NCBI GenBank assembly: GCA_963755715.1
Contig: CAVWLW010000034.1
Coordinates: 32,001-96,000, forward strand
DNA: 64,000 nt
Direction of reading: 5' to 3'
From: an uncultured delta proteobacterium
Lineage (GTDB): Bacteria; Desulfobacterota; Binatia; UBA9968
Shown here: piece after piece, positions 50,460 to 64,000 of the stretch
Numbering within the stretch: position 1 is the first letter of the stretch
Layout of the letters: the number at the start of each line of letters is the position of its first letter
The notes under the pieces: model-generated
What the model was told of the DNA's origin: nothing
The model's input: the letters and a program-made list of their open reading frames with translations, nothing else
The model's database searches: none
Translations under genes and position numbers: made by a program

Positions 50460-51938
50460 TTATAATGCAGAGAGAAATTTAAGCAGAGTACGCACGCCGA
50501 ATCCAGTGCCGCCCTTGGGGCAAAGCGCGTTGTCGTTTTCGGCGAACGCCGGCCCGGCGATATCCAGATGCGCCCACGGCACGTCGCCGACAAATTCTTG
50601 CAGGATCAATGCGGCTGTGATCGCCCCGCCGTGAGATCCGCCGATGTTTTTCATGTCGGCGACGCTGCTTTTGATCATTTCTTTGTACTCTTTGACCAGC
50701 GGCAGTTGCCAAAGCTTTTCGCCGGCTTCCCCGGCGCAACGCAGCAGCGTGTCCGCGAGCGGCTGGTGGTTGCTGAAAAGGCCACCGACTTGGGTGCCCA
50801 AAGCGACCATGCAAGCGCCGGTTAAAGTCGCCAGATTGATCATGTAATCGGGATTCTGTTCGCCGCCGAGCGCGAGCGCATCGGCGAGGATCAGCCGCCC
50901 TTCGGCGTCGGTGTTGAGCACTTCGATAGTCTTGCCGTTCCTGTAGCGAATCACGTCGCCCGGTTTCTGCGCATTGTCCCCGGGTAAATTATCGGTTGTA
51001 GGCACGTAACCCGTGACGTCGATATCGAATCCAAGCTTGGGCAAGCAACTCATCGCGGCGATTACGGCGGCGCCGCCAGCCATGTCGAGTTTCATGGTTT
51101 CCATCGACTTCGATGGCTTGAGCGATAAACCGCCCGAATCGAAAGTTATGCCTTTGCCGATCAACACGACTTTCTTTTTCGGCTTGCCCGCAGGCTTGTA
51201 ATGAATTTTTATAAAGCGCGGTTCTTCATAGCTGCCGCGGTTCACCGCCAAGAGTCCGGCCAATTTCATCGACTCGATCTTTCGCTTGTCCCAAACTTCC
51301 GCAGACAATCCCCGGCCACGGCAATATTTTTTTGCCTGTTCGCCGAGGAAACGCGCGGTGGTGACCGACGGCGGTTCATTGACCAGATCGCGCGCCAGAG
51401 AGACTCCGGTGACGACGATCTGCGCGATTTCGATCGAGCGCATCAATGCCGCGGTCGGCCGCAAGCCTGAGTTAAACAGCGTGAAGGACTTGAGCTCGGC
51501 CGGCGGCTTGGAGCTCGAGCGATATTTATTAAATTGGTAGGCGGCCAATAGCGCGCCTTCGACCAGCGCGCCGCCTGCTATTGCCGAATCTTTATCGGGC
51601 GAAAAGAAAAATGCGATGTCTTCGGCGCCGAGCGCTGCGGCTTCCCTGCGCGCTCGCGCGCCGATCTTGCGCCAAGTGTCGCCGGTGATTTCCGCTCCGC
51701 CGCCGAGGCCGATCAACAGCAATTGGGCGGCCGGCAAAAGTCCGGCCGTTTGATAGATCAACGTGCCGCCTTCGGCGCCGGTGAATTTACTTTTTTGCAT
51801 GCGCGCGCGCAGATTACCCCGAAGACGGCGGTCCAGGGCTCGGATTAGCGCATCGTCGAGTTTCTTTTCGCGCACCGGGATGACGAGCAGATCGGTTTTG
51901 ATCCGTTCGGCGTTGCTGTCACGTACCTTGATTTCCAT
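50460..51938 (-). CDS. pepA: Leucyl aminopeptidase (M17)
   Basis: GKGITFDSGG, MKLDMAG, NTDAEGRL, ATLTGA, HLDIAG. Confidence 0.95.
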   Translation of the reverse strand: MEIKVRDSNAERIKTDLLVIPVREKKLDDALIRALDRRLRGNLRARMQKSKFTGAEGGTLIYQTAGLLPAAQLLLIGLGGGAEITGDTWRKIGARARREAAALGAEDIAFFFSPDKDSAIAGGALVEGALLAAYQFNKYRSSSKPPAELKSFTLFNSGLRPTAALMRSIEIAQIVVTGVSLARDLVNEPPSVTTARFLGEQAKKYCRGRGLSAEVWDKRKIESMKLAGLLAVNRGSYEEPRFIKIHYKPAGKPKKKVVLIGKGITFDSGGLSLKPSKSMETMKLDMAGGAAVIAAMSCLPKLGFDIDVTGYVPTTDNLPGDNAQKPGDVIRYRNGKTIEVLNTDAEGRLILADALALGGEQNPDYMINLATLTGACMVALGTQVGGLFSNHQPLADTLLRCAGEAGEKLWQLPLVKEYKEMIKSSVADMKNIGGSHGGAITAALILQEFVGDVPWAHLDIAGPAFAENDNALCPKGGTGFGVRTLLKFLSAL

Positions 51939-51949
51939 CTGGCCTTCGA

Positions 51950-52498
51950 TCATGTCCTTTGGCGGATCAGCGTCATGAATTCGTTGCGAGTGTCCTGGCG
52001 CGTGCGAAAGGCGCCCAGCAGGCTGCTGGTGATCACGTAGGAGTTCTGCTTTTCGACGCCGCGCATGCGCATGCACAAATGCTCCGCCTCGATGACGACG
52101 GCCACGCCCAGGGCGTCCAGCTTTTCCATGATGATGGTGGCGATTTGATTGGTCATGCGCTCTTGCACTTGCAGTCGCCGCGCGTAGATGTCCACGAGTC
52201 GGGCCAGTTTTGAGATGCCGACGATTTTGTGATGCGGGATATAAGCCACGTGGGCCTTGCCAAAAAACGGCAGCAAGTGGTGCTCGCAAAGCGAGTAAAA
52301 ATCGATGTCCTTTTGCACGATCATCTCTTCATAATCTTCCGTGAAGAGCGCATCGTTGATCACTTTCGCCGGGTCCATGTCATAACCGCGGGTCAAAAAA
52401 GTCAGCGCCTGAGCGACGCGCTGCGGCGTCCTCAGCAATCCTTCGCGGTTCGGGTCTTCACCGATCGCTTGGAGTATTTGGCGAATTTGTTCTTCCAT
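51950..52498 (-). CDS. folE: GTP cyclohydrolase I
   Basis: [34 protein letters not shown]. Confidence 0.97.
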
Positions 52499-52622: not shown

Positions 52623-53360
52623 TTACAGTCGTTGCAACAACCAGTTGGGCGTGAAGCGCAGCACGTAGGCATTGAGCAGCGTCATGTAGTCGGCAATTAA
52701 AAGAATGCCGACGATGATCAAGAGAACGCCTCCGACCACATGGATGGTTTGAATATAATGACGCAGCCGTTGTGAAAACTGAAAGAAAGAATCGATCGCC
52801 AGCGCGCTCAAAAAAAACGGCAGAGCCAGGCCAGCCGCATAGCTTGTCAGTAACAGCGTGCCGCGGCCCACTTCACCGGCGGTGCTTGCCAGAGCCAGCG
52901 TGGCTCCCAGGATCGGTCCTACGCAAGGTGTCCAAGCCACGGCAAAAGTGATGCCGACAAGAATAGAACCGAGATAGCCCGCCGGTTTGTCCTTGAGATT
53001 GAACTGTAAGTATCGATCGAGCACAGCGATCTTGAATAGGCCGACGAGATAGAGCCCAACCAGCAGGATAAACACGCCGCCGAGTATGCGAATCGCGTTG
53101 CGATAATCCAGGAAGAGACCGCCGAGAAAACTCGCGGAAGCGCCGAGCGAGATAAAGACTAACGAAAAGCCGATAATAAATGCTGCCGAGTTCAAAATCA
53201 CGCGCCAGCGAACCCGCGCGCGCGCTTCTTCGCTGCGCATTTCATCGAGAGAAACACCCGACACAAACGAAAGATAAGATGGAATCAGGGGCAGGACACA
53301 GGGCGAGAGGAACGAGAAAACTCCGGCCGCGAAAGCAACGAAAATGTTGACGTCGGTCAT
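52623..53360 (-). CDS. ccdA: Cytochrome c biogenesis protein CcdA
   Basis: SFLSPCVLPLIP and WTPCVGPILG. Confidence 0.92.
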   Translation of the reverse strand: MTDVNIFVAFAAGVFSFLSPCVLPLIPSYLSFVSGVSLDEMRSEEARARVRWRVILNSAAFIIGFSLVFISLGASASFLGGLFLDYRNAIRILGGVFILLVGLYLVGLFKIAVLDRYLQFNLKDKPAGYLGSILVGITFAVAWTPCVGPILGATLALASTAGEVGRGTLLLTSYAAGLALPFFLSALAIDSFFQFSQRLRHYIQTIHVVGGVLLIIVGILLIADYMTLLNAYVLRFTPNWLLQRL

Positions 53361-53923
53361 CTCTTGCCGTCAGTAAGATCTTTAATGAGCTTGCGCGCGC
53401 CATTGCCGTACCATTCTGCCGGCCCCCAACCGCGCGCCAATCCTTCGCCGTTCGGACCGATGAGATAAGTCGCCGGCAACCCCCAAGCGCCGTAGAGGCT
53501 GCCCACTTGGGCTTCGGGGTCGAGGGCGATCGGATAGGTTATTTTAAGCTCCTTGACGAAGTCGACCGCGTCTTGTTTACGGTCTTTCACCGCCACGGCT
53601 AAGACGACAAAGTTTTTTTGCTTGTACTCCTGGTACAACTTTTCCATGGCCGGCATCTCTTCCCGGCACGGCACGCACCAACTCGCCCAGAAATTTAACA
53701 GCACGACTTTGCCGCGGAAGTCCTTTAAAGAGATCTTTTTGCCGTCGGGCGTGGTTAGATTGAACTCTGGGGTCGGCGCGGTGTCCTTCATCGGCTGAAG
53801 AATCGGCACCGCTTTTTTGTAGTCGACTTTCGTTTGGCTCCATGCCGGAGCAAAACTTAGAACGATTGAGCTTCCAAAAAAGACAAATACGCGCAGGAAA
53901 TCGCCGGTGATTTGCGTTTTCAT
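53357..53923 (-). CDS. TlpA/ResA family thiol-disulfide reductase
   Basis: Signal peptide, [24 protein letters not shown]; overlaps ccdA start. Confidence 0.9.
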
Positions 53924-54084
53924 ACAGGGTTTAACTCTAACCAACAGGCCGAGCCGACGCAATACTCGTCCCGACGCCGAATTCAGGCGCCCGGCAAAGA
54001 GAAGCTAGGAAAAAAATCGTGCTGCTGTTTACATGCGGGATGGATTTAATTTCGTGTCGAACGAATTTGAATCTAACGACGGCC

Positions 54085-54126
54085 AAAAACACAAGGCCCT
54101 CCAAGTTGTCACTGGAGGGCTCTGTG
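54085..54126 (-). terminator. Intrinsic terminator of the poly-Lys sORF transcript
   Basis: Minus strand: CACAGAGCCCTCCA-GTGACAACT-TGGAGGGCCTTGTG-TTTTT. Confidence 0.7.
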
Positions 54127-54207
54127 TATTAGGCAACCAGAACGGTTACCTTGTTGCCTGAGAGTCAGGAGGGTTTAAATCACCACCACAACCCCACAAC
54201 TCCGTAT

Positions 54208-54258
54208 TTACTTCTTTTTCTTTTTGGCTTTCTTCTTGGCTTTCTTTTTAGCAGCCAT
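54208..54258 (-). CDS. 16-aa poly-lysine small protein MAAKKKAKKKAKKKKK
   Basis: ATG GCT GCT AAA AAG AAA GCC AAG AAG AAA GCC AAA AAG AAA AAG AAG TAA, preceded by SD AAAAGGAGGT-GCTT; promoter upstream and terminator downstream. Confidence 0.75.
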   Translation of the reverse strand: MAAKKKAKKKAKKKKK

Positions 54259-54371
54259 AAGCACCTCCTTTTAGGATTCCACGGGCGGGCTTTTCGATTG
54301 ACAGGCGTTGAAAATTGACTCAGGCAAGAGAAACGAAACTAAAAACCCTCCCATATTTTGTAGGTGATCCA

Positions 54372-54401
54372 ATTATTAGGACACAACAGATTGTATGTCA
54401 A
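54372..54401 (-). promoter_or_regulatory. sigma70-type promoter for the poly-Lys sORF
   Basis: TTGACA (54401-54396), 17-18 nt spacer, TAATAAT; AT-rich UP-like tract upstream. Confidence 0.6.
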
Positions 54402-54965
54402 GAAAAAAATATCATTTTACAAAATATTTTGACGCGTGCGCTGAAACTTTGCCGACGAGCAATTCAAACTGTGATCAAGCAATGACGGCGAACTAAGAGA
54501 TAGCGATTAACAGCAGAGCGTTTTATTGCGACGTTTGATGTCAAGGATCAAAAAAGCATGTTGAGGAAAATTTTTGGGCGTCTAAGCGAGGGGCGATCAG
54601 AATCGCAGCTGCACAGTCAAAGCACAGTGGCGCGGAGATTACCGCGCGAACGCTCCGACTTCACTCAATCCGTAGCGCCTTGATCATTTTGGGGCAAGTG
54701 GGGGATGCAGGCGGCGAGCTTTTGCCGCAATAGGCGCTTGCGGGCGCGCTCCGATGGCGCGGATAAACCCATCGCGGAGTAAATGCGCGGCGGCGGCACA
54801 GATAGGCGGCGCTGATGACCACGAAGGCAGGTGATCTATCGGAAGGAGATTTAGGGCTTTGCCAAGAACTGTGCGCTCGACCATACCGCAAGTGGTAATG
54901 ATACGAGCGGCTTGTCGTCAAGATCTGGGGAGCAGGGTTTGTCAGGAAAACATTCTGCGTGGGTG

Positions 54966-55979
54966 CTATCGCGAGGCCGTGGCACGTGCCAATTCTTCAT
55001 CGATGATCCGCGCGAAAGCTTCGAGGGGTTGAGCTCCCGTCAAGGGCCGTCCGTTGATGAAAAACGCCGGCGTGCCAGTGACTCCAAGACGCGTACCCTC
55101 GTCAATATCTTTTTGTAATGCGGTTTTGTGCACGCCGCCTGAGAGGCAGTCGTCAAACTTTTTGACATCGATCCCGGCTTGCGCGGCATAGCGCTTCAAA
55201 TCATCGGGAGCCAATTTAGGCGACTCGGTAAAGAGCGTGTCGTAATATTCCCAAAACTTTCCCTGATCGTTCGCGCAACGCGCCGCCTCGGCGGCCCGCC
55301 GCGCCTGGGGATGGATACTTTCAAGCGGAAAGTCGCGATACACGAGTTTGACTTTGCCTGCATATTTCTCAAGTAATTGCATTAAGGTCGGGTGTGCTCG
55401 CTTGCAGAACGGGCATTCAAAGTCAGAAAATTCGACTATTGTAACTGGAGAGTTCGCCGGTCCTCTAAAAGGTGCTCCGTCCACCGATACTTCGACCCGC
55501 GCCGCCGCCGGCGGCTTTAAGTTGTCTACTATCTTGGCTTGTGAGCGGAGAGATGTGAGAAATTCTTCGCGCTTAGCCGCCAACTTTTGGTTTTGTAAGA
55601 AAGCTCTGATCTGCTCCCGAACCTGAGCCTGCTCTCCTTTGATCTGCGCTTTCTTTTCCTGATAGAATTTTTCGATCTCCTGTTCCGTGACCAGGCCGAC
55701 TTTCGAGGTGATCTCAGCATCCAGTAAAGCCGGCACCGTGAGCTTGCGTTTGGCTGCTTCCTTTTCCAAAAGCTTCTCATTGATCAGCGCGTCGAGTTTC
55801 TGGCGTTTTAGATTGTAAATCTGCTCTTCGAGCTTGCTTAGCTGGCCCGCGAGACTTTTTTCGACTTCTTCCGAAGTGATCGCGGCCCCGTCCACCTCAG
55901 CCAGCGCATCGCCCGCCCCGTGAGCGTTTGTTGGAAAGCTGGATCCCAGCAAGAAAAGTAAAATCCAAAAAATCATCAT
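54966..55979 (-). CDS. DsbA-family oxidoreductase with SurA-like N-terminal domain
   Basis: Signal peptide, EFSDFECPFC, YRDFPL, GVTGTPAFFING. Confidence 0.9.
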   Translation of the reverse strand: MMIFWILLFLLGSSFPTNAHGAGDALAEVDGAAITSEEVEKSLAGQLSKLEEQIYNLKRQKLDALINEKLLEKEAAKRKLTVPALLDAEITSKVGLVTEQEIEKFYQEKKAQIKGEQAQVREQIRAFLQNQKLAAKREEFLTSLRSQAKIVDNLKPPAAARVEVSVDGAPFRGPANSPVTIVEFSDFECPFCKRAHPTLMQLLEKYAGKVKLVYRDFPLESIHPQARRAAEAARCANDQGKFWEYYDTLFTESPKLAPDDLKRYAAQAGIDVKKFDDCLSGGVHKTALQKDIDEGTRLGVTGTPAFFINGRPLTGAQPLEAFARIIDEELARATASR

Positions 55980-56097: not shown

Positions 56098-58238
56098 TCA
56101 TTTCTCCTGCATGACCACCAGAACTCCGTTTTCACCCGCCGCCAGCCGGCCAGCATGGAAGGTCGCGGGCGAGTCGGCCGGAAAATCGCGGTGCAGCGCA
56201 GCGAAAAGTTCTGCCGCTTCAGGCTCTTCCTGGCTTAGCGCGGTGTAGGCTTCGGCGTAGCGGGCCAGTAGCGCCGGCGGGTCGGCCGGAGAGACCGGCG
56301 CCAGGATAGCTACTGCATTTTTCCGGCCTTTCACGATTATGTCACCAACAGGACGAAACGTATGGCGCGAGCACTGCGCGGCGGTCTCGCCGCTCACCGC
56401 TACATGGCTGCCGATATACTTGTTCAGCCCCTCCACGCGGGAGGCGGTGTTGAGCGTATCGCCCAGGGCGCCGTATTTCAGCTTGCCGCGGGTGCCGATA
56501 TTGCCGACCAGCGCCATGCCGGTATGGACGCCGATGCGGGTATGGCCCCACTCGATGCCGCGCGCCGCAAGCCGGGCACTGAAGCGTTGGCCCGCTTCGT
56601 CCATCGCAATAGCGGCGGCCACGGCGCGGTCAGCGTGGTCCGGCTGGTGCATCGGCGCACCGAACAACACCACGAGGCCGTCGCCGATGAAGTCGTTCAC
56701 CAACCCGCCATTTTGCACCACCGCATCGGTCAGCACGCCGAAATAGTCACCCAGCAGCGCGGCCACGGTGGCGGCATCCAAGTTCTCGGCCGTGGTGGTG
56801 AAGCCGGCGATGTCGGTGAAGATGGCGGTGATCTCGCGATGCTCGCCACCGAAACTGGGCAGTGTGTCGCCCTGCATCATCTGGCTGATGATGCGCGGGT
56901 CGAGGTAACTCTCGAAGCTGCGGCGCAGCTGGGCGCGTTCCCGCAGCCCCACCGAGTGCATGACGAAGTTGCAACCTGCCGCGCTCAGCACCCAGGCCAG
57001 CGCCACCGGCACGCCGGGCAGTAGCAGACCCGCGCCCGAGAACCCCCAAGCGGTGGCCCCGCCCACCAGGCCAAGGCCCAGCAGCAGTGCCAACAACACC
57101 ACGATCACGCGCCAAACCAGCAGCGCTAACACTGCGCCGGCCATTGCCGCGGCCCAGATGGTGACATCGTCCATCAAGCGCGGCAGCGGCACCGGGTTGC
57201 GCGATTCGCCATTGGCTATGCGTATCAATTGGTCGGCGGTGTGCGCGTGCAGCGCAATCCCGACGAGCGGCCCCTCCCCGCCCCAGCCGGTACTCAACGG
57301 CGTAGCGAAACTATCCTTGATGGAGAGCGCAGCGGTGCCGATCAGCACAATGCGTCCGCGCAGAGTTGCCGCCAGGTCCGGCCGGCCGATGATCTCGGAG
57401 AAGCTTATCTGGCGGAAACGTCGATAGCCGCCGCGATAGTCCAACAGCATCTGGTAGCCAGCGGCATCCAGCTTTGCGTAAGGGCCATAGGGCTGGTCGA
57501 GCAGCGGGATGCGGCCCTGGCCCAGCGCCAGGTCGTTGTCCACAATGCCCAGCCGCTGACCGGTGTATCGTTCGGCCAGGGCGACGCCCATCGCGGGCCA
57601 GTTGCGGTTAGTGCGTTCATCCGCAGCCAATAGCAGGGCCCGGCGCACCACGCTACCCGCATCCGTCACGTGGTCAGAGAGCACCTCGCGCCCGGTGCCG
57701 CGCAGCGCGGGCGGCGGCGGAACCCCGTCATTTCCTACATCCGGCAGCTTGAAGACCCAATACAGGTTGTCGTGGGCACGCTGAATGGCTTGTAACTCCT
57801 GGTTGCCCGGCGCCATCGGCAAATCGCGGTACAAATCCACACCTACCGCCTTCGGCCCACTGGCGAAAACGGCCGCCAGCACGGCAGCAAGGTAGTTGTC
57901 GCGGATGGGGTAGTTCAAGCGGTTGATATCCTCTTCTGTGGTGACCACCAGCACCACTCGGTCGCTTTGTTGCGACCCCGCGAAGAAAGTCACCAGAGTA
58001 TCAAACGCCGAAAGCTCTAGGCTTTGTAGCCAGCCGGTTTCCCGCAGCGATAGCAGCATCAACGCCACCAAGTTGGCTACTATCAGCGCCTTGACGAAAC
58101 GCCGGCGCAACAGGGCGGCCAGCCAATGCCCCGTGCGTGCTGGCGCGCCTCGCGCCGACTCGACCGCGCCCCCATCAATGTACTTCAGCTTTCCCGTTCC
58201 CGTTGACGATACATCCATCTTAGGGGCCTGCTTTGCCA
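56098..58238 (-). CDS. CHASE2-domain class III nucleotide cyclase (probably guanylyl-type)
   Basis: TM, CHASE2 (AVGVDLYRD, RGRIVLIG, GIALHA), 3 TM, FTDIAGFT, DFIGDG, RIGVHTG, GDTLNTASRVEG. Start uncertain (58238 or 58317). Confidence 0.88.
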
Positions 58239-58863
58239 TCGCAATCTTGCTTTCTGTCCAGTCCGGCGGGTTGCGCTCTGCCTGGTTAGGCAGGCGCTTG
58301 GCCGCGGATGCAGCCACGGTTTGGCACTATCGTGTTAACTGTCAACGCGACGATAAGTGTGTAGCAGGCAGCGCTAGCGCGCCATGGACGAACTCTCAAG
58401 CATAAAGGCAATCCAAACATTTCCATCGGATTTGTCCGTGTGCGGCTGAAATACATATCATCTTAATTCAGCCTCCAAAAGACAAACTCCCGAGACCACA
58501 GTCGCCTCGGCGCGGAACTTTTCCAGTCGCCGTATATTACCCAACCACGATGACAAAACTATATGTAATGTCGCACAGCCTTCGCGCTCGCATTATCGAG
58601 CGAGGCTTCTGAGGCGTTTATGGAAGGAGTAGAAGCTAAAATTGAATGGCGAATCAACGAAGATTGCCTAATGGAATTCAGAACGCGACGTTCGGGCGGG
58701 TCGCACGTCGTTCGAGTTATTGTGGCGGCGGCTTTTAGTTGTCTACTATCTTGGCCTGCGACCATTCGCTCCTGGAGGGCAGGTTGGTGGAGCGTTTTCC
58801 CGGTCCTACGTATCGATGAATGACTAACGCCGGCGAATGCCAGCGTTAATCACTACAAGCGAT

Positions 58864-59541
58864 CTATTCGTTGGTCGATGGTAGGCCAACCTGTTTCAGG
58901 AGCGCCGTACGCTCGTTGCGGAGCTCTTGGTTTTGAGGCGCAGCGTCAATTAGATCGGAGATCGACTTCAAAGCATCGTACCAGAGACCTGCCTGCGCGT
59001 AGACAAAAGGTAGCTCCTTGTCCGATGCTTTAGCCAGCTTCGTCTTGACATCTTCCTGCAGATCGACCCGCTCGATGGCCCCGCCAGCCAGGATGTCTTT
59101 CGAGCGCCGATCGGCATCGGGCACCACCGCAACAAACCACCGATACGCTGCACCTGGCGCGAGGCGAACATTATAGTCGGCTAATCGAACCCGCTGAATT
59201 CCCGGCTTGGTAGGGGCAGGAAGCTGCGTTTCCAGGATGGGTTTGACTCCTTGAGGATCCATCAGAGTAAGTTCAATCGGCAGGGAGGTTGGGTTGGAAA
59301 TGAACCAGTAGAGCGAGGGCTGCTCGCTGGTCGTAAATGCGCTGTGATCCGGCGCCAAGACGGACAGGACAAAGACATTTTGGCCACCGCCTCGTGTGCC
59401 GCCGCCTATGCGTCCCCCCGGAGCTCCGCGCGAAGGAGGGTTGTATACCGGCATGTTGGCATCCGCTGCAAATAACGAAACCCGCGTGCTAAGCACAAGA
59501 ACCGCAATTGAAGACCAAACCATCGGTTTTAGGTACTTCAT
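58864..59541 (-). CDS. DUF928 domain secreted protein
   Basis: Signal peptide, YNPPSRGAPGGRIGGGTRG, TTSEQPSLYWF, YAQAGLWYDAL, LLKQVGL. Confidence 0.85.
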   Translation of the reverse strand: MKYLKPMVWSSIAVLVLSTRVSLFAADANMPVYNPPSRGAPGGRIGGGTRGGGQNVFVLSVLAPDHSAFTTSEQPSLYWFISNPTSLPIELTLMDPQGVKPILETQLPAPTKPGIQRVRLADYNVRLAPGAAYRWFVAVVPDADRRSKDILAGGAIERVDLQEDVKTKLAKASDKELPFVYAQAGLWYDALKSISDLIDAAPQNQELRNERTALLKQVGLPSTNE

Positions 59542-59894
59542 GTTCGTTCTCCTTAAATAAGGCTAGTAAGCAAGTGTTACGCCAACTTATAAGATCACAG
59601 CCACAGTGGATTAACAAACTGTTGCCCGGGTACATACATGGACCGGTTCTCGCCGTCAACTTCGTTTACAGCGGCTCGACATCATTGACTGCTGACCATT
59701 ACCATCTTCGGATCGTCGCACCACCCGATCGATCACCACCTTCCGCTTTACCCTTTACGTTGGGTTCTCCGACTTTTTCGGTCCGGAACTGGAGATCGAG
59801 ATAAGACTGAGGGTTCCTACGGAAATCAGAACTGGGATCCAAACACCGACGGTCAATGGAGATCATACACCGACCCCACGGCAGAAACACATCA

Positions 59895-62201
59895 TTAGAG
59901 CCAATTATTAATCATTAAAAAAGGCGACCAAAATCCCGGATGCTCATAGCGCGGATTGTTGATTAACTTTAGCTGCGCGCGCTGTAGCGCGACGGCCCTA
60001 GAAATGGAGGAATCTTTAAGCTCCCGGTAAAAATCTATGACGAGGTCCACTGCAGCTTCATCATTGATGCTCCACAGGGTAGCCAGGGCGCTCCTGGCAC
60101 CCGCTTTGATCGCCACGCCTGCCAGTCCCAACGCCGCCCGGTCATCTCCTGCGGCGGTGTCGCAAGCGCTCAAGGTGAGCAGCTCTAAAGGATCGTCGCG
60201 GAATCGGAACACGCCGATCATCTGATTGAGGCGATCCAATGATACTTTGTCATCGAAAGTGAGAAGAAAAGTATTGTCGACGTCATTACCAAACTCACCG
60301 TGCGAGGCGACGTGGACGATGCTAAATTGTTCTTCTTTCAGTTCCTTTTCAAAATTGGCCGTGAGGAATTCGCGGTCGACAAGATTCTTGCTTCCCAAAA
60401 GAGTGTGCAGCTCTTGAAGCTCCGCTGATACATTCGGCAACGCCGGAAATCCCTGAACAGCTTCCGTCACGCCAACGGCCAAGACCTTCATGCCCTCCCG
60501 TTTGATCGGCCGCGGATCGGTGAGATTCATGCTGGGGGTAATGCCCAGCGCATATTTGGCGATCAGGAATTGTTTGCCATCGTGCAGGGCTGCCATCGGA
60601 ATTGTACGCAGCGCTCCGTCCGGAACGAAGATTAGGGTATCAATGGAAAACGCTGCCAAGTCCGGCTCTATAGGACGGATCAACCAGTCATAGAGTTTTT
60701 GAGCGTGAGGGAGATACTCTCGTGTTGTCCGTTTCTCCAGCTTGCGCCGGAACTCCCGCACCTCTTGCGTAATAGTCTCCATTCCTACCGGAACCGAAAC
60801 TTGCTTCAGCCCGGTTGGCAAGCCGATCAGCAATTCTGTTCGATCCGGCAAAAGGATCGGATAGATGATGACGGTTGTCTTGGCCACAACGTCGAGCTTG
60901 GTAACTTTAGACAAAGCTGTGTCCACGCAGTCGTCGCGAAAATAATCCCGCAACTCGGCCGCCTTGAATAACTCCACCGTGTCGCGCGCTTCAATCAAGT
61001 ATGGAGCAACCTGGTTCGGATCCCGCAGTGACTGTCCGCGTTGTAGAAGCAGATCCACCAACTCGAAGTACAGCGGTCCCATCGTTTCACGGAATGACGT
61101 TTGTGGAGCTCCGTAGCTGGCTGACAGCTCGGGTCGTATCGACTGAAGCGAACGCACCGCGCGCCGGTATGCTCCAATAGCATCGTCGATGTTTCCTTGT
61201 TTCGTGAGCAGACGTCCGGTTTGCCATTCCCAGCGATACAGAGACTCGGGAGCATTTATTTGCTGGGCTGCGAACGTGGCACGACGCGTCAGCTGCAAAG
61301 CCTCGTCATACCTGCGTTCGTCTTCGTACAGCTTACCGAGATAGCCCCAGGCGTAGGATGACGTTCGCCGATCTCCTATACTATCACTGATCGTACCCGC
61401 TTCAGTAAAAGTCTGGTGCGCAAGCAGTAACAAGGAGTCCTTCAAGTCTGGAAGTCTTGACCGAAGATCATCGTAGGCCAACCCGATAGTGATCAAGCCG
61501 GAAGCTTTGTCGTGTGACGGTTCCAACGCGCGAATCTCATCCAACGCATTGTCGAGGAGCGCCTTGGCTTCCTTATATTGCTTATTTTGCATCGATGCTG
61601 TGGCTGCATTGATCAGCGCTTTTCCGGCCAGTACACGGTTATTGCGGGACTTCGCGAGGGCGGCGCTCTCGTTATACGCAGCAATCGCTTCGGGGTATTT
61701 TTTTTGCGCGGTTAGCAGGTTTCCCAAATTGTTGAGGATCGTTGCCGAAAGATCCTGATTGTTCAGTTCCTTAGCGATTCGAAGCCCCTCGGTCAAATTT
61801 TTGAGGGCTGCGTCCTCAGGACCGGTGGCAATGTAGAGATTTCCGAGCGCACCGAGCACGGAGGCTACTTGTGTACGATCGCCGGCTTTTTCGGCCAGGC
61901 TCAGAGCTACATCAAGATTTTTTCCGGCTTCCTTGTATCTACCCAGCGCTTGATTGGCCTGTGAGAGGTAAACCAGCGCTTCGGACTGCCGCCGGATTTC
62001 GCCTCCGCGCTCGTATAACTGAGCAGCTTCTGTCCAGCTCAAAGCAGCCTGTTCGAAGTCACCTCGTTGAAACAATTCCAGGCCGATCTTTATTTGGCGA
62101 TCTGCGGGCGAGACTTCGGCAGCGAATAATGGGGAGCAAAAATCGGCAACAGCACAAAATAAGAGCCCTAATAAAAGAAAGCGAGAATGCTTAACACGCA
62201 T
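59895..62201 (-). CDS. Secreted TPR-CHAT (caspase-like) protease
   Basis: Signal peptide, TPR array, FVPDGALRTIPMAALHDG, HVASHGEF (catalytic His), LTLSACDT (catalytic Cys), HPGFWSPF. Confidence 0.92.
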   Translation of the reverse strand: MRVKHSRFLLLGLLFCAVADFCSPLFAAEVSPADRQIKIGLELFQRGDFEQAALSWTEAAQLYERGGEIRRQSEALVYLSQANQALGRYKEAGKNLDVALSLAEKAGDRTQVASVLGALGNLYIATGPEDAALKNLTEGLRIAKELNNQDLSATILNNLGNLLTAQKKYPEAIAAYNESAALAKSRNNRVLAGKALINAATASMQNKQYKEAKALLDNALDEIRALEPSHDKASGLITIGLAYDDLRSRLPDLKDSLLLLAHQTFTEAGTISDSIGDRRTSSYAWGYLGKLYEDERRYDEALQLTRRATFAAQQINAPESLYRWEWQTGRLLTKQGNIDDAIGAYRRAVRSLQSIRPELSASYGAPQTSFRETMGPLYFELVDLLLQRGQSLRDPNQVAPYLIEARDTVELFKAAELRDYFRDDCVDTALSKVTKLDVVAKTTVIIYPILLPDRTELLIGLPTGLKQVSVPVGMETITQEVREFRRKLEKRTTREYLPHAQKLYDWLIRPIEPDLAAFSIDTLIFVPDGALRTIPMAALHDGKQFLIAKYALGITPSMNLTDPRPIKREGMKVLAVGVTEAVQGFPALPNVSAELQELHTLLGSKNLVDREFLTANFEKELKEEQFSIVHVASHGEFGNDVDNTFLLTFDDKVSLDRLNQMIGVFRFRDDPLELLTLSACDTAAGDDRAALGLAGVAIKAGARSALATLWSINDEAAVDLVIDFYRELKDSSISRAVALQRAQLKLINNPRYEHPGFWSPFLMINNWL

Positions 62202-62213
62202 ATCTTTTCTCCG

Positions 62214-63989
62214 CTACCTACCGAAAAACTCTAGAGCGAACTGTAGATGAAACCCGTGGTCTTGGAGAGAATTCTCAGGATTCACAACTTTTCTCAGTCG
62301 ATAGCCATAGTACATTTCGAACGATGGCCGGATTGGAATAGGCCGTAAAAAGGAAAGCGCCCAACGGACGCCCCAGCCTACACTTGAGATATCCTTAGGA
62401 TCAGGGGTTTTTAGGTTCACAAGCCACCCCTTCCCGTAGTCAATGAACGGGGCCAATTCCAGATAATCAGCCCAGCTCGTATTACTGATGACGGGCAGAC
62501 GAATCTCGAAGGAGGCTAAAGCTGCCTTGTCTCTCAGCATCGTGTTCTCCCGGTATCCGCGCACACTATAGCGCCCTCCTATGGAAACCTGCTCGAGGGA
62601 CAGAAGGGGAGAATCAGCGTATTGGAACTGCGACCGAAATATCCCATAGCTATCCAACAATCCAACATTCTTAACCCATGGATTCTGACCGAGAGGTTGG
62701 AGCCATTGCCCAAAACGTTGAACGAATTGAAATTGGCCTAGCCACGCGAAGAAAATCCCGTCCGGTAAACCATTGTGATTAACGGTCGCTCCCAATGCGT
62801 TCAGCCCGAACGAAAAACGCGATCGTGCAGCGAAAACTTGAGACTGCGTACGATAGACGAATTCCTGGGCGGTGCGCAGAGCGGCTACCACGGATCGGCC
62901 GTGCTGAGCACCGGGCTCGAAAGAGAAGTCCTCCCCCAAGAGCTTCGTCTGTAGCCAGAGGCGCTCGCCGGTAAGCTCCAGAGCCAAATCGCTGTTGAGC
63001 GTCCGATAGACAGGCTGTCTCAACGTAAAGGTGTAAATATCCGATTTGCTATCGACGTTCAGCGGCTCGAATGGCTGCTCGATTACGGACAATGTGTTTC
63101 TGCGATACTCGTAACTCAGAGCCGTGTCGTAGGCGTTGAACGGGAAAGAATATTTAAAATCGAGCAATGGATTGAGACCCTGCGATCGCCCGTATTGGCC
63201 AAAAAACACATCTCCGTTGCCGGTGAGGTTTTCGTGCCACAAGGTTACGAGCCCGCGGTTCTCGCCCACTGAGGGTGACTGGTAATTGTTGTATTCCGTA
63301 ATGAGCCTGTAGGGCGTCCGCTCTTCGACGCGCACGTCCAAAATGCCCTCACCGGGCTTTAGCCCCGGCTTCAGCTCGGCGTTCAGCCGCTGGATGCGCG
63401 AGTCATCGAGCAGGAGTTGCAAGCGCCGCTGCAATGCATTGACGTTCAGCGGCGGGCCGGCATCCAGTAAAAATCTTTTTTGGAAATAACTGTCGCGAAA
63501 CCACCGGTTTCCTTCCACATCAACAGCACTTAACGTGCCCTCGATGATCTGATAAGTCAGCACACCTTCGGTCACTGTTTGATCTGGAAGGATCGCACCG
63601 GAATTGACGTAGCCGTTGTTGACATAGAGGAGGGTCAGGGCCACTCGAAGCGCCTCCAGATCCTCCGATGTGAGTTCCCGGTTCTTATAGGGATCGGTGA
63701 CTTTGGCCAAGTCTTCAGGCGAAAATACCGTGCTGCCAACAACTCTGATCTCGCGGACAAAGGCGCGCAATCCTGGGAATGGCGTCGCTTGTGGCGGAAT
63801 GGGAGTAGGAGGTAGCAGTGTCCCTGGCGGTTGTGCGGGAGCTTCAAATTGCTTGGGCAGCGGCGGTGGTTCACCCGAGCGTCCGGTTGGATCGATCTGA
63901 GAAGGAACGGCGATCGGAACAACCTGAGCACCGGCTGATGAGCAGATTACAAAGAAGACGACCAGCGCAAATGACCGAATGACTTTCAT
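62214..63989 (-). CDS. ShlB/FhaC/HecB (TpsB) outer-membrane two-partner secretion protein
   Basis: Signal peptide, POTRA (LYVNNGYVNS, IIEG), GGRYSVRGYRE (VRGY motif), C-terminal beta-signal. Confidence 0.92.
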   Translation of the reverse strand: MKVIRSFALVVFFVICSSAGAQVVPIAVPSQIDPTGRSGEPPPLPKQFEAPAQPPGTLLPPTPIPPQATPFPGLRAFVREIRVVGSTVFSPEDLAKVTDPYKNRELTSEDLEALRVALTLLYVNNGYVNSGAILPDQTVTEGVLTYQIIEGTLSAVDVEGNRWFRDSYFQKRFLLDAGPPLNVNALQRRLQLLLDDSRIQRLNAELKPGLKPGEGILDVRVEERTPYRLITEYNNYQSPSVGENRGLVTLWHENLTGNGDVFFGQYGRSQGLNPLLDFKYSFPFNAYDTALSYEYRRNTLSVIEQPFEPLNVDSKSDIYTFTLRQPVYRTLNSDLALELTGERLWLQTKLLGEDFSFEPGAQHGRSVVAALRTAQEFVYRTQSQVFAARSRFSFGLNALGATVNHNGLPDGIFFAWLGQFQFVQRFGQWLQPLGQNPWVKNVGLLDSYGIFRSQFQYADSPLLSLEQVSIGGRYSVRGYRENTMLRDKAALASFEIRLPVISNTSWADYLELAPFIDYGKGWLVNLKTPDPKDISSVGWGVRWALSFLRPIPIRPSFEMYYGYRLRKVVNPENSLQDHGFHLQFALEFFGR

Positions 63990-64000
63990 CGCTCGATGTG

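Follow-up and report, generated by a model that had tools for sequence, protein, structure and literature searches.

What would a bacterium gain by encoding, side by side, an outer-membrane secretion pore, a caspase-like protease, a small protein with a signal peptide and a membrane-bound nucleotide cyclase? The question is raised by positions 56098-63989 of a 64,000-nucleotide stretch of DNA (the window; G000:C34:32001-96000) from an uncultured soil bacterium of the Binatia, whose 7.4 Mb genome is assembled in 76 contigs and is 93.6% complete. Judged from sequence, this locus carries a copy of a five-gene envelope module that is widespread and consists of a two-partner secretion (TPS) pair, TpsA and TpsB, a TPR-CHAT protease, a DUF928 protein and a CHASE2 receptor cyclase. 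We consider it highly probable that these five parts form a real, functional signalling module. As an account of the whole, a trans-envelope relay that sets the output of the CHASE2 cyclase is the best explanation we can offer, with a probability of roughly 0.45, and its specific wiring from protease through DUF928 to CHASE2 is put forward tentatively, at somewhat worse than even odds.

As the initial annotation had described, four co-directional genes lie here, all on the minus strand, and their open reading frames (ORFs) and Pfam domains match that description. The first encodes TpsB (62214..63989, minus strand; 591 residues), in which a signal peptide and a Pro-rich linker precede a POTRA_2 domain (PF08479, E 1.1e-19) and a ShlB-type barrel (PF03865, E 9.5e-25), the pairing that marks a type Vb outer-membrane transporter. 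It is followed by the TPR-CHAT caspase-like protease (59895..62201, minus strand; 768 residues), with a signal-like N-terminus, TPRs over residues ~33-480 that match TPR families, and a CHAT domain at 499-764 (PF12770, E 2.9e-58). The DUF928 protein (58864..59541, minus strand; 225 residues; PF06051, E 1.7e-38, 132.7 bits against a cut-off of 26) carries a signal peptide, an Arg/Gly motif, an immunoglobulin (Ig)-like domain at 58-160 and TPR-like helices at 163-224; near-identical proteins occur in metagenome-assembled genomes (MAGs) labelled Candidatus Binatia, Deltaproteobacteria and Pyrinomonadaceae. Last comes the CHASE2 class III nucleotide cyclase (56098..58317, minus strand), of 739 residues when read from a GTG, although the true start may be further downstream. 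Its CHASE2 domain (85-394; PF05226, E 2.2e-42) is flanked by hydrophobic stretches read from the sequence, a first transmembrane (TM) segment at ~74-91 and a TM cluster at ~396-460, after which comes the cyclase domain (492-668; PF00211 Guanylate_cyc, E 9.4e-20).

A TpsA had been expected just beyond position 64000, and a TPS-domain ORF (PF05860, E 8.5e-34) is indeed found directly upstream of TpsB, at L002:1711-4578 (equivalent to window positions ~65210-68077), with a signal-like N-terminus and Gly-rich beta-helix repeats. The gene is broken in the assembly, in that the intact 1,210-residue orthologue of locus L029 aligns to it as four collinear pieces in frames -3/-1/-3/-1. We checked the frame against contigs of four soil-metagenome runs (X1-X4) that align to this stretch with at least 90% likeness, those of X1, X2 and X4 coming from near-identical soil populations. 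One base fewer was present at L002 ~946-950 in X2 (one contig) and X4 (three contigs), at 1314 and 1341 in contigs of X2 and X4, and at 1785 in contigs of X1 and X4; contigs of X3 had no indel in the TpsA stretch. Because the four single-base insertions are all of one kind, the frame breaks are likely assembly errors rather than decay. The extra bases fall in L002:650-2000, and other genes of the genome may carry similar indel errors.

Do these five genes belong together, or do they merely adjoin? CHASE2, the TPS domain and DUF928 each occur once in the source genome, in every case at this locus, and one of its two CHAT loci is also here, a grouping far beyond chance. A scan with a DUF928 alignment, using one genome per species, confirmed 574 stretches, of which the 80 highest-ranking were retained; these represent 79 distinct loci, whose 4,346 ORFs were searched with in-house hidden Markov models iterated from the window proteins. 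Many of the 79 are truncated, and 28 full-flank loci retain at least 9 kb on either side. In the full-flank subset CHASE2 was found at 27 loci, the cyclase and CHAT at 26 each, TPS at 24, TpsB at 22 and all five at 19; over all 79 loci the corresponding counts were 61, 62, 58, 42, 51 and 31. The loci span Binatia, Acidobacteriota, Rokubacteria/Methylomirabilota, Desulfobacterota and Gamma- and Betaproteobacteria, with further representatives in Nitrospirota, Nitrospinota, Verrucomicrobiota, Scalindua, Zixibacteria and Entotheonella, and the commonest order elsewhere is TpsA-TpsB-CHAT-CHASE2 cyclase-DUF928, in which the called ORFs often overlap or lie a few bases apart. The window and three genomes of the same genus show four distinct gene orders and orientations, and the distribution within the genus is patchy, DUF928 scoring above cut-off in 4/25 genomes. 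The recurrence of the four domains in other bacteria, which the initial annotation had noted, is thereby borne out across phyla and through rearrangement. A chance or purely historical linkage on a mobile island, with genes that do not work together, would accommodate this patchiness, as well as the deviant base composition and the swap of the cyclase gene described below. We regard it as extremely improbable, given that the linkage persists across phyla through repeated rearrangement and cyclase replacement, that genes of the canonical operon are often a few bases apart or overlapping, and that a complex model points to a physical link between two of the products.

At the level of the order we profiled 113 genomes of at least 80% completeness, counting neighbours by hand from hit tables; the tallies take in genomes flagged as unpublished (G005 and G090 for CHASE2; G005, G073, G076 and G090 for CHAT), on which no individual claim depends. 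A DUF928 or DUF928-like match at E <=1e-3 occurs in 19 genomes, 10 of them exceeding the Pfam cut-off, and it has a CHASE2 match on the same contig within ~6 kb in 18/19 and a CHAT match within ~8 kb in 16/19. CHAT matches were found in 60/113 genomes, and CHAT and CHASE2 also occur as neighbours where DUF928 is not detectable, e.g. G007:C113, G062:C436 and G110:C518. The nearly constant company of DUF928 and CHASE2, in 18/19 genomes of the order and 27/28 full-flank loci, is what would be expected if DUF928 served CHASE2 as a co-receptor, capturing in the periplasm an external ligand that had entered there, much as periplasmic binding proteins work with chemoreceptors, with CHAT and the TPS pair forming a separate, co-regulated unit. 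Many DUF928/CHASE2 pairs share overlapping stop and start codons, a structural relative of DUF928 named MtxA (see below) also pairs with a CHASE2 cyclase, and CHASE2 cyclases of Sinorhizobium meliloti are described as responding to a basic protein signal (PMC13001267, PMC7529298). A metagenomic protein, P0240, joins CHASE2, cyclase and DUF928 in a single ORF, just as one MAG encodes TPR-CHAT, CHASE2 and cyclase as a single ORF at L075:5633-9766, in which CHASE2 begins from profile position 56 and the first TM segment is missing; both may be genuine Rosetta-stone fusions or artefacts of a lost stop codon or read-through. A search for longer homologues of the CHASE2 cyclase yielded no CHAT-CHASE2 fusion among 7 matches, which is weak evidence. 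CHAT is, however, as tightly linked as CHASE2 (26/28), and no ligand pocket was identified. Together with the predicted docking of DUF928 on CHAT and their co-variation, both given below, this leaves the co-receptor arrangement, in our judgement, decidedly unlikely.

The second protein of the locus appears to be an active and exported enzyme. The intact His and Cys that had been placed at about 60301 and 60163 correspond to His634 (codon 60300..60302, minus strand) and Cys680 (codon 60162..60164, minus strand), both invariant in 38/38 aligned orthologues, and on its sequence the exported TPR-CHAT has the catalytic residues for a predicted cysteine protease. Even between phyla its orthologues share 42-75% identity over the whole protein, an unusual degree of conservation. 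Acidic residues cluster near the catalytic Cys, with Glu, Gln or Asp at 681, D686 and D687 each in 37/38 and D714 in 38/38 orthologues, and these conserved residues would suit an Arg at the P1 position of a substrate. The signal peptides ascribed earlier to CHAT and DUF928 recur as conserved hydrophobic N-termini, in 35/38 CHAT orthologues and 40/41 DUF928 sequences, by a Kyte-Doolittle scan rather than a dedicated signal-peptide predictor. In several CHAT orthologues a Cys follows soon after the hydrophobic stretch, which looks like a lipoprotein signal.

DUF928 is a large family, with at least 5,120 clusters at 50% identity (E <=1e-3). The flexible Gly/Arg-rich motif that had drawn attention in the window protein, GAPGGRIGGGTRG, was confirmed at residues 39-51 and is part of a family-wide YxPPxRGAPxxRxGGGTRG; the fuller N-terminal motif, YNPPSRGAPGGRIGGGTRGG, covers residues 33-52 (59386..59445, minus strand). 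Among 41 sequences P35 and R50 are invariant, and Y33, P36, G39, P41, R44, G47 and G48 are kept in at least 90%. The two halves of the motif differ in the company they keep: R44 is present in 65/68 DUF928 proteins from CHASE2 loci and in 10/10 from loci with CHAT and no CHASE2 in view, and a hydrophobic residue at position 45 in 66/68 and 10/10, respectively, whereas R38 is kept in 61/68 of the former and 0/10 of the latter. This split fits a CHAT-facing half (R44-hydrophobic45) and a CHASE2-facing half (R38). Nitrospirota-type loci (L065:8340-10639, L086 and L092) carry two to three tandem DUF928 genes after CHAT, with no CHASE2 and with a motif that lacks the RGAP half. Two fusions of DUF928 to PG_binding_1, a peptidoglycan-binding domain, were found. 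Scanning 15 longer DUF928 proteins revealed no anti-sigma Pfam domain, and three have N-terminal parts of 200-300 residues without a Pfam match.

An AlphaFold 2 (AF2) model of DUF928 reached a predicted local distance difference test score (pLDDT) of 88 and a predicted template-modelling score (pTM) of 0.82, with the N-terminal segment less confident. Its best match among solved structures is the C-terminal domain of MtxA from Magnetospirillum gryphiswaldense (4z29; Foldseek E 3.9e-5), with Z 10.3 and a root-mean-square deviation of 4.1 over 148 aligned residues within 58-225; the next matches are generic Ig or FN3 domains (Z <=9), and the DUF928 profile found no match among PDB sequences at E 1 or better. 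The model thus places DUF928 in an MtxA-like Ig plus TPR fold. MtxA, a periplasmic protein, is described as having a signal peptide and 'no homology'; its gene is followed by that of a CHASE2 adenylate cyclase, and homologues are reported in a few Alphaproteobacteria only (PMC4439547). As far as the literature searched goes, the DUF928-MtxA link appears new and would extend the same partnership to the Alphaproteobacteria. In two genomes of the window's own genus (G020 and G022), L012:904-8848 and L013:2790-8860 hold a TPS-less trio of CHAT, CHASE2 cyclase and an MtxA-sized protein, in which the gene of the exported CHAT of ~1,000 residues is divergently oriented and the third protein (313-319 residues) is weakly DUF928-like. 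The 313-residue proteins align with DUF928 at an hhalign probability of 38% (E 3.3e-4; Pfam E ~2e-4) and gave no sequence match to 4z29; they are probable distant relatives of DUF928, and other weak DUF928-like matches beside CHASE2 and CHAT in genomes of the family may represent the same trio.

Does the protease touch DUF928? A complex prediction, which the initial annotation had called for, was run on CHAT(27-768) and DUF928(27-225) with custom alignments and three controls. The interaction prediction score from aligned errors (ipSAE) was 0.75 (runs 0.73, 0.75 and 0.75), the best of the three controls scoring 0.03; the mark used is reached by 116/157 solved complexes and 2/215 mismatched pairs, a calibration that is rough here since custom alignments were used. 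The runs share at least 87% of contacts, and each partner has a pLDDT of at least 83. No solved complex of this type is known to us, which makes it unlikely that the prediction reproduces a memorised structure. In all of the closest pairs listed, the Ig face of DUF928 (90-104 and 136-149) meets a conserved stretch of CHAT, 489-497 (EKRTTRE.L). The predicted interface on CHAT consists of 489-498 together with 681, 683-684 and 710-714, beside Cys680, and that on DUF928 of the Ig face together with 40-45 (APGGRI, including Arg44). The output gives interface sets and closest pairs, without the CHAT partner of DUF928 40-45, and the placing of the Arg44 motif at the CHAT active site is what we infer from the two sets. 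Interface columns are slightly more conserved than the rest, at 0.75 versus 0.61 in CHAT and 0.61 versus 0.56 in DUF928, a modest excess. The strong pass (0.75 against 0.03) tells against the co-receptor arrangement; it is also compatible with DUF928 acting as an inhibitor of the protease, which leads to a different account of the locus.

In that account the module would control an adhesin in a Lap-like manner: cleavage would release or mature the TpsA filament, DUF928 would serve as a securin-like inhibitor or adaptor of CHAT, and the CHASE2 cyclase would report on or co-regulate the process. TpsA does carry a conserved C-terminal motif, C..AR...SSxVVxGRxGLP..P, its core in 28/32 and its full form in 27/32 of the module TpsAs of at least 800 residues, 11-70 residues before the C-terminus, and the window genome's TpsA bears it once the frame is corrected. 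The Arg-Gly site within Cys...GRxGLP resembles the DUF928 motif, and CdrA/CdrB with the periplasmic Cys protease LapG supply a precedent (PMC5422565). Some loci, moreover, combine CHAT, DUF928 and TPS in the absence of CHASE2 (L065, L079 and L092). Against this, CHASE2 is present at 27/28 full-flank loci, exceeding TpsB or TPS, the L012 and L013 trios of CHAT, CHASE2 cyclase and DUF928-like protein have no TpsB or TPS in the stretches examined, and CHAT differs from LapG in fold and family and is accompanied by no LapD-like receptor. We consider adhesin control unlikely on balance, though substantial enough to keep in view.

The fourth protein has the hallmarks of a working cyclase. All 59 module cyclases keep the two metal-binding Asp residues, and 58/59 keep each of the transition-state residues, Asn and Arg (one gap). 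Class III cyclases typically specify the purine by a Lys/Asp pair for ATP and a Glu/Cys-type pair for GTP. The corresponding positions are non-canonical here, with Asp and Gly in the window protein and, over the module cyclases, D27/Q14/K10/N4/S3/R1 at the first and T38/V12/A4/G3/N1 at the second; being non-canonical and variable, they do not point to a particular product. Among solved chains the closest is 2w01 (E 4.8e-32), which we take to be the Synechocystis Cya2 cyclase, and PycC models match the domain with a best E of 7e-22, as expected for any class III cyclase. An AF2 model of the periplasmic CHASE2 domain (window 57142-58044) has a pLDDT of 82 and a pTM of 0.85; compared with solved structures, it gave a best Z of 5.2 and no Foldseek match at E <=1e-3, which offers no clue to function and is no proof of a new fold. 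The domain has many invariant acidic residues (E101, D106, D140, D161, D219, D284, D293 and D335), which might lie opposite the basic motif of DUF928 or coordinate a metal. The GC content of the cyclase gene is 0.63-0.66 against 0.51-0.55 in its neighbours, and the protein is 78-86% identical to the cyclases of L014, L015 and L020 while only ~30% identical to those of the sister Binatia loci L016-L018, where DUF928 reaches 68-70% identity. It thus belongs to another lineage than theirs, and one cyclase seems to have been exchanged for another within a module that itself persisted; retention of a CHASE2 cyclase through the swap argues for function and for a generic interface.

What would read such a signal? 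Proteins with cNMP_binding domains and varied effector domains lie in at least 17/79 loci, the effectors including a Na/sulfate symporter, an Na/H exchanger, MMPL, sigma-54 activators, Crp regulators, Ser/Thr kinases, glutaminase, patatin and a metallo-beta-lactamase (MBL) fold, an enrichment that is suggestive. In the window genome a cNMP_binding-Na_sulph_symp protein is encoded ~9 kb from TpsB, one of 11 cNMP_binding domains in 7.4 Mb, and the same architecture follows DUF928 in L037. Upstream of TpsA, the signalling-rich stretch L002:6951-16107 encodes this transporter (cNMP_binding-TPR-Na_sulph_symp), an ATP-binding cassette (ABC) substrate-binding protein, an MBL-fold protein, a response-regulator-cyclase and a dCache-HAMP-GAF histidine kinase; genes for MBL-fold and cNMP-binding proteins are again found close to the module in L026 and L069. 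A patatin lipase among these neighbours, the patchy presence in the genus (4/25), the non-canonical specificity residues and the generic PycC matches (E 7e-22) would also suit a sensor of envelope conflict, in which the filament or the periplasmic TPR-CHAT detects an invader and a cyclic nucleotide alarms cNMP-binding effectors. The periplasmic TPR-CHAT of DdvA is described as controlling a CBASS-CRISPR island (PMC11506125), and EACC2-caspase-CHASE2 proteins have been proposed as parts of sensor systems (PMC8195603). Yet PADLOC returned no system match on the module, only generic fold-level ones, and the neighbouring effectors are mostly transporters, sigma-54 activators, Crp regulators, kinases and glutaminases. 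A defence role is, to our minds, very unlikely.

Taken as a relay, the five parts could work as follows. TpsB would export a beta-helical TpsA filament of ~1,200 residues, whose conserved Cys...SSxVVxGRxGLPxxP tail would leave the periplasm last. The exported TPR-CHAT cysteine protease would bind periplasmic DUF928, the Ig face of which would dock on the EKRTTRE.LP segment of CHAT, with residues beside the catalytic Cys also in the interface. Arg44-hydrophobic45 of DUF928 would then lie at the active site, to be cut there or held as a securin-like pseudosubstrate, and the protease may also engage or cut the TpsA tail. In the periplasm the CHASE2 sensor domain would have DUF928 as its dedicated partner, and the state of DUF928 (free, bound or cut, possibly with a released YxPPxRGAP peptide) would set the activity of the class III cyclase, whose cyclic nucleotide would be read by the products of nearby genes for cNMP-binding effectors. 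Signalling probably runs from outside to inside, so that surface events at TpsA/TpsB would be reported to the cytoplasm. Gene content, conservation, catalytic residues, the DUF928 fold and a complex model that holds up against its controls are the parts of this scheme that have been shown; localisation, cleavage, DUF928-CHASE2 contact, direction of the signal and identity of the nucleotide are all inferred. One particular form of it, a protease-activated receptor cyclase, would have CHAT cut DUF928 after Arg44 and the peptide or new N-terminus act as the CHASE2 ligand, a surface event at TpsA (contact, pulling, or attack by a phage or competitor) being converted into a pulse of a possibly non-canonical cyclic nucleotide; we hold this form to be improbable as it stands.

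Several observations weigh against the relay. The ipSAE of the CHAT:DUF928 model expresses confidence of a model and is not a measurement. In a mirror-tree comparison on 34 loci, where shared ancestry of kin makes for weak evidence, DUF928 followed CHAT (r 0.86, partial 0.38) and TpsB (r 0.84, partial 0.26) more closely than CHASE2 (r 0.73, partial 0.18); better co-variation with CHAT than with CHASE2 also speaks against a DUF928 co-receptor, while the tight co-variation of TpsB, CHAT and DUF928 (TpsB-CHAT partial correlation 0.575) is in line with adhesin control. CHASE2 is far commoner in the order than DUF928, in 68 versus 19 of the 113 genomes. With cyclases only ~30% identical beside DUF928 proteins that are 68-70% identical, any DUF928-CHASE2 interface must be generic. 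The motif split depends on 10 CHASE2-less sequences that represent 5 loci and ~3 lineages, some of the loci truncated, and the survey of cNMP_binding neighbours on one BLAST cluster (48 ORFs, 28 loci) with no formal background model. TpsA may, after all, be a strain-specific pseudogene, and deletion of MtxA is reported to have had no phenotype under standard conditions (PMC4439547). Finally, in Nostoc PCC 7120 pCC7120alpha encodes TpsA, DUF1822, a sigma factor, a CHAT-like-CHASE2 fusion and DUF928; because the fusion has no signal peptide its CHAT-like domain would be cytoplasmic, yet the adjacent DUF928 keeps the motif.

A periplasmic thiol-redox cluster at 52623-55979 in the window adjoins the module in this genus only, comprising a DsbD_TM/CcdA-like membrane protein (52623-53360), an AhpC/TSA-redoxin (53357-53962) and a DsbA-like protein with a SurA-like N-terminal domain (54966-55979). 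The last had been suspected of being unrelated, and it can be ruled out as a module member: it was found in 2/79 loci, both in MAGs matching loci of the same genus. A link between the cluster and the conserved Cys of the TpsA tail would be pure speculation. Beyond the cluster, an M17 leucyl aminopeptidase ORF (50460-52289; 609 residues from a TTG) begins ~135 residues before its N-terminal domain, and its start codon is probably over-called. Directly upstream of TpsA, L002:4723-5658 encodes a 311-residue protein with no Pfam or PADLOC match. A scan for promoters and terminators gave counts not above those in shuffled sequence.

Why might such a module matter? CHASE2 is a widespread sensor for which the literature examined shows no directly bound ligand and for which we found no solved structure or clear structural relative; the module gives CHASE2 and DUF928 a defined set of partners, and with it a testable lead to what CHASE2 senses. 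If the relay is true, it would represent a new route from the Gram-negative cell surface to a second messenger, and would extend caspase-like signalling proteases to the periplasm. Module genes are present in cultured Nostoc strains, and genetic tests are therefore feasible; in Nostoc UHCC 0302 the set includes DUF1822, CHASE2, DUF928, a 976-residue 'S-layer family' protein, ShlB, CHAT and a filamentous haemagglutinin N-terminal (FHA-N) protein.

How does the module compare with systems already studied? In the full-text literature, subscription journals lying outside its coverage, we found no paper on a DUF928, CHAT and CHASE2 module and, among the papers listed for two-partner secretion, none that mentions CHASE2; DUF928 itself surfaced in a single paper, which touches on it briefly in connection with a gene neighbourhood of Nostoc punctiforme (PMC5587647). 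EACC2-caspase-CHASE2 proteins with an extracytoplasmic function (ECF) sigma factor and DUF1822 were described by Kaur et al. 2021 (PMC8195603), a paper that does not contain 'hemagglutinin', 'two-partner' or 'DUF928'. They share with the module a caspase-fold protease tied to CHASE2, and cyanobacterial copies stand beside DUF928 and TpsA genes. As described there, though, the caspase-like domain is fused N-terminally, with no signal peptide, a cytoplasmic output and no cyclase, whereas the window has a separate exported TPR-CHAT gene, and neither an ECF sigma factor nor DUF1822 was seen among the scanned ORFs. Pycsar is a two-gene defence system that pairs a cytosolic pyrimidine cyclase with a cNMP-activated effector; its architecture differs from that seen here, where the cyclase is a membrane CHASE2 receptor.

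Among proteases, DdvA of Myxococcus xanthus is the only studied periplasmic TPR-CHAT in the literature searched; this separase/craspase-type protein has been proposed to start transmembrane signalling by proteolysis (PMC11506125). It likewise places a TPR-CHAT with a His-Cys dyad in the periplasm. As reported, however, the DdvA TPR-CHAT is fused to a single-pass anti-sigma factor, is dimeric and lacks three active-site helices, and the output of DdvA-DdvS is an ECF sigma factor; the window CHAT has only a signal-like N-terminus, TPRs and CHAT, and is not a fusion of that type. Separase-securin and craspase (Csx29-Csx30) are cited in the same source as TPR-CHATs held or gated by an extended partner in the active site (securin) or cutting a dedicated partner (PMC11506125). 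The module would share with them a TPR-CHAT that has a dedicated partner, the pseudosubstrate or substrate role of DUF928 resting on one complex model, but they are cytoplasmic or nuclear and their partners are unrelated. MtxA, for its part, matches DUF928 in its signal peptide, its Ig-like and TPR-like C-terminal domain and its CHASE2 adenylate cyclase neighbour, and differs in a distinct N-terminal part; the portions of PMC4439547 available mention no protease or TPS partner.

Two pathways come closest. In Pseudomonas, periplasmic LapG is described as cutting the C-terminal tail of the TpsA adhesin CdrA (PMC5422565), and CdrA/CdrB-LapG-LapD resembles the module in combining a TPS adhesin, a dedicated periplasmic cysteine protease and a nucleotide messenger acting through an inner-membrane receptor. 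The likeness extends only to function: LapG comes from a different family of proteases, DUF928 has no equivalent there, and LapD receives cyclic di-GMP (inside-out), whereas here the membrane protein is itself the cyclase that makes the messenger. In S. meliloti, the outer-membrane barrel NsrA feeds the CHASE2 cyclases CyaK, CyaD1 and CyaD2, whose cyclic AMP is read by Clr (PMC13001267, PMC7529298), so that, as in our proposal, an outer-membrane beta-barrel is needed for CHASE2 cyclases to respond to an extracellular protein (the basic uL2) and a cNMP-binding protein reads the product. The parts of those reports available mention no TpsA, exported CHAT or DUF928, the nearby cNMP reader is a transporter here and a Crp protein there, and when a plasmid collection was searched by tblastn, neither TpsB nor the CHASE2 domain from the window had a Sinorhizobium match at E 1e-3. 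NsrA with its CHASE2 cyclases and Clr is nonetheless the closest studied pathway, and CdrA/CdrB with LapG the closest TPS precedent; the module joins these known kinds, two-partner secretion with an accessory protease on the one hand and an outer-membrane protein feeding a CHASE2 cyclase on the other.

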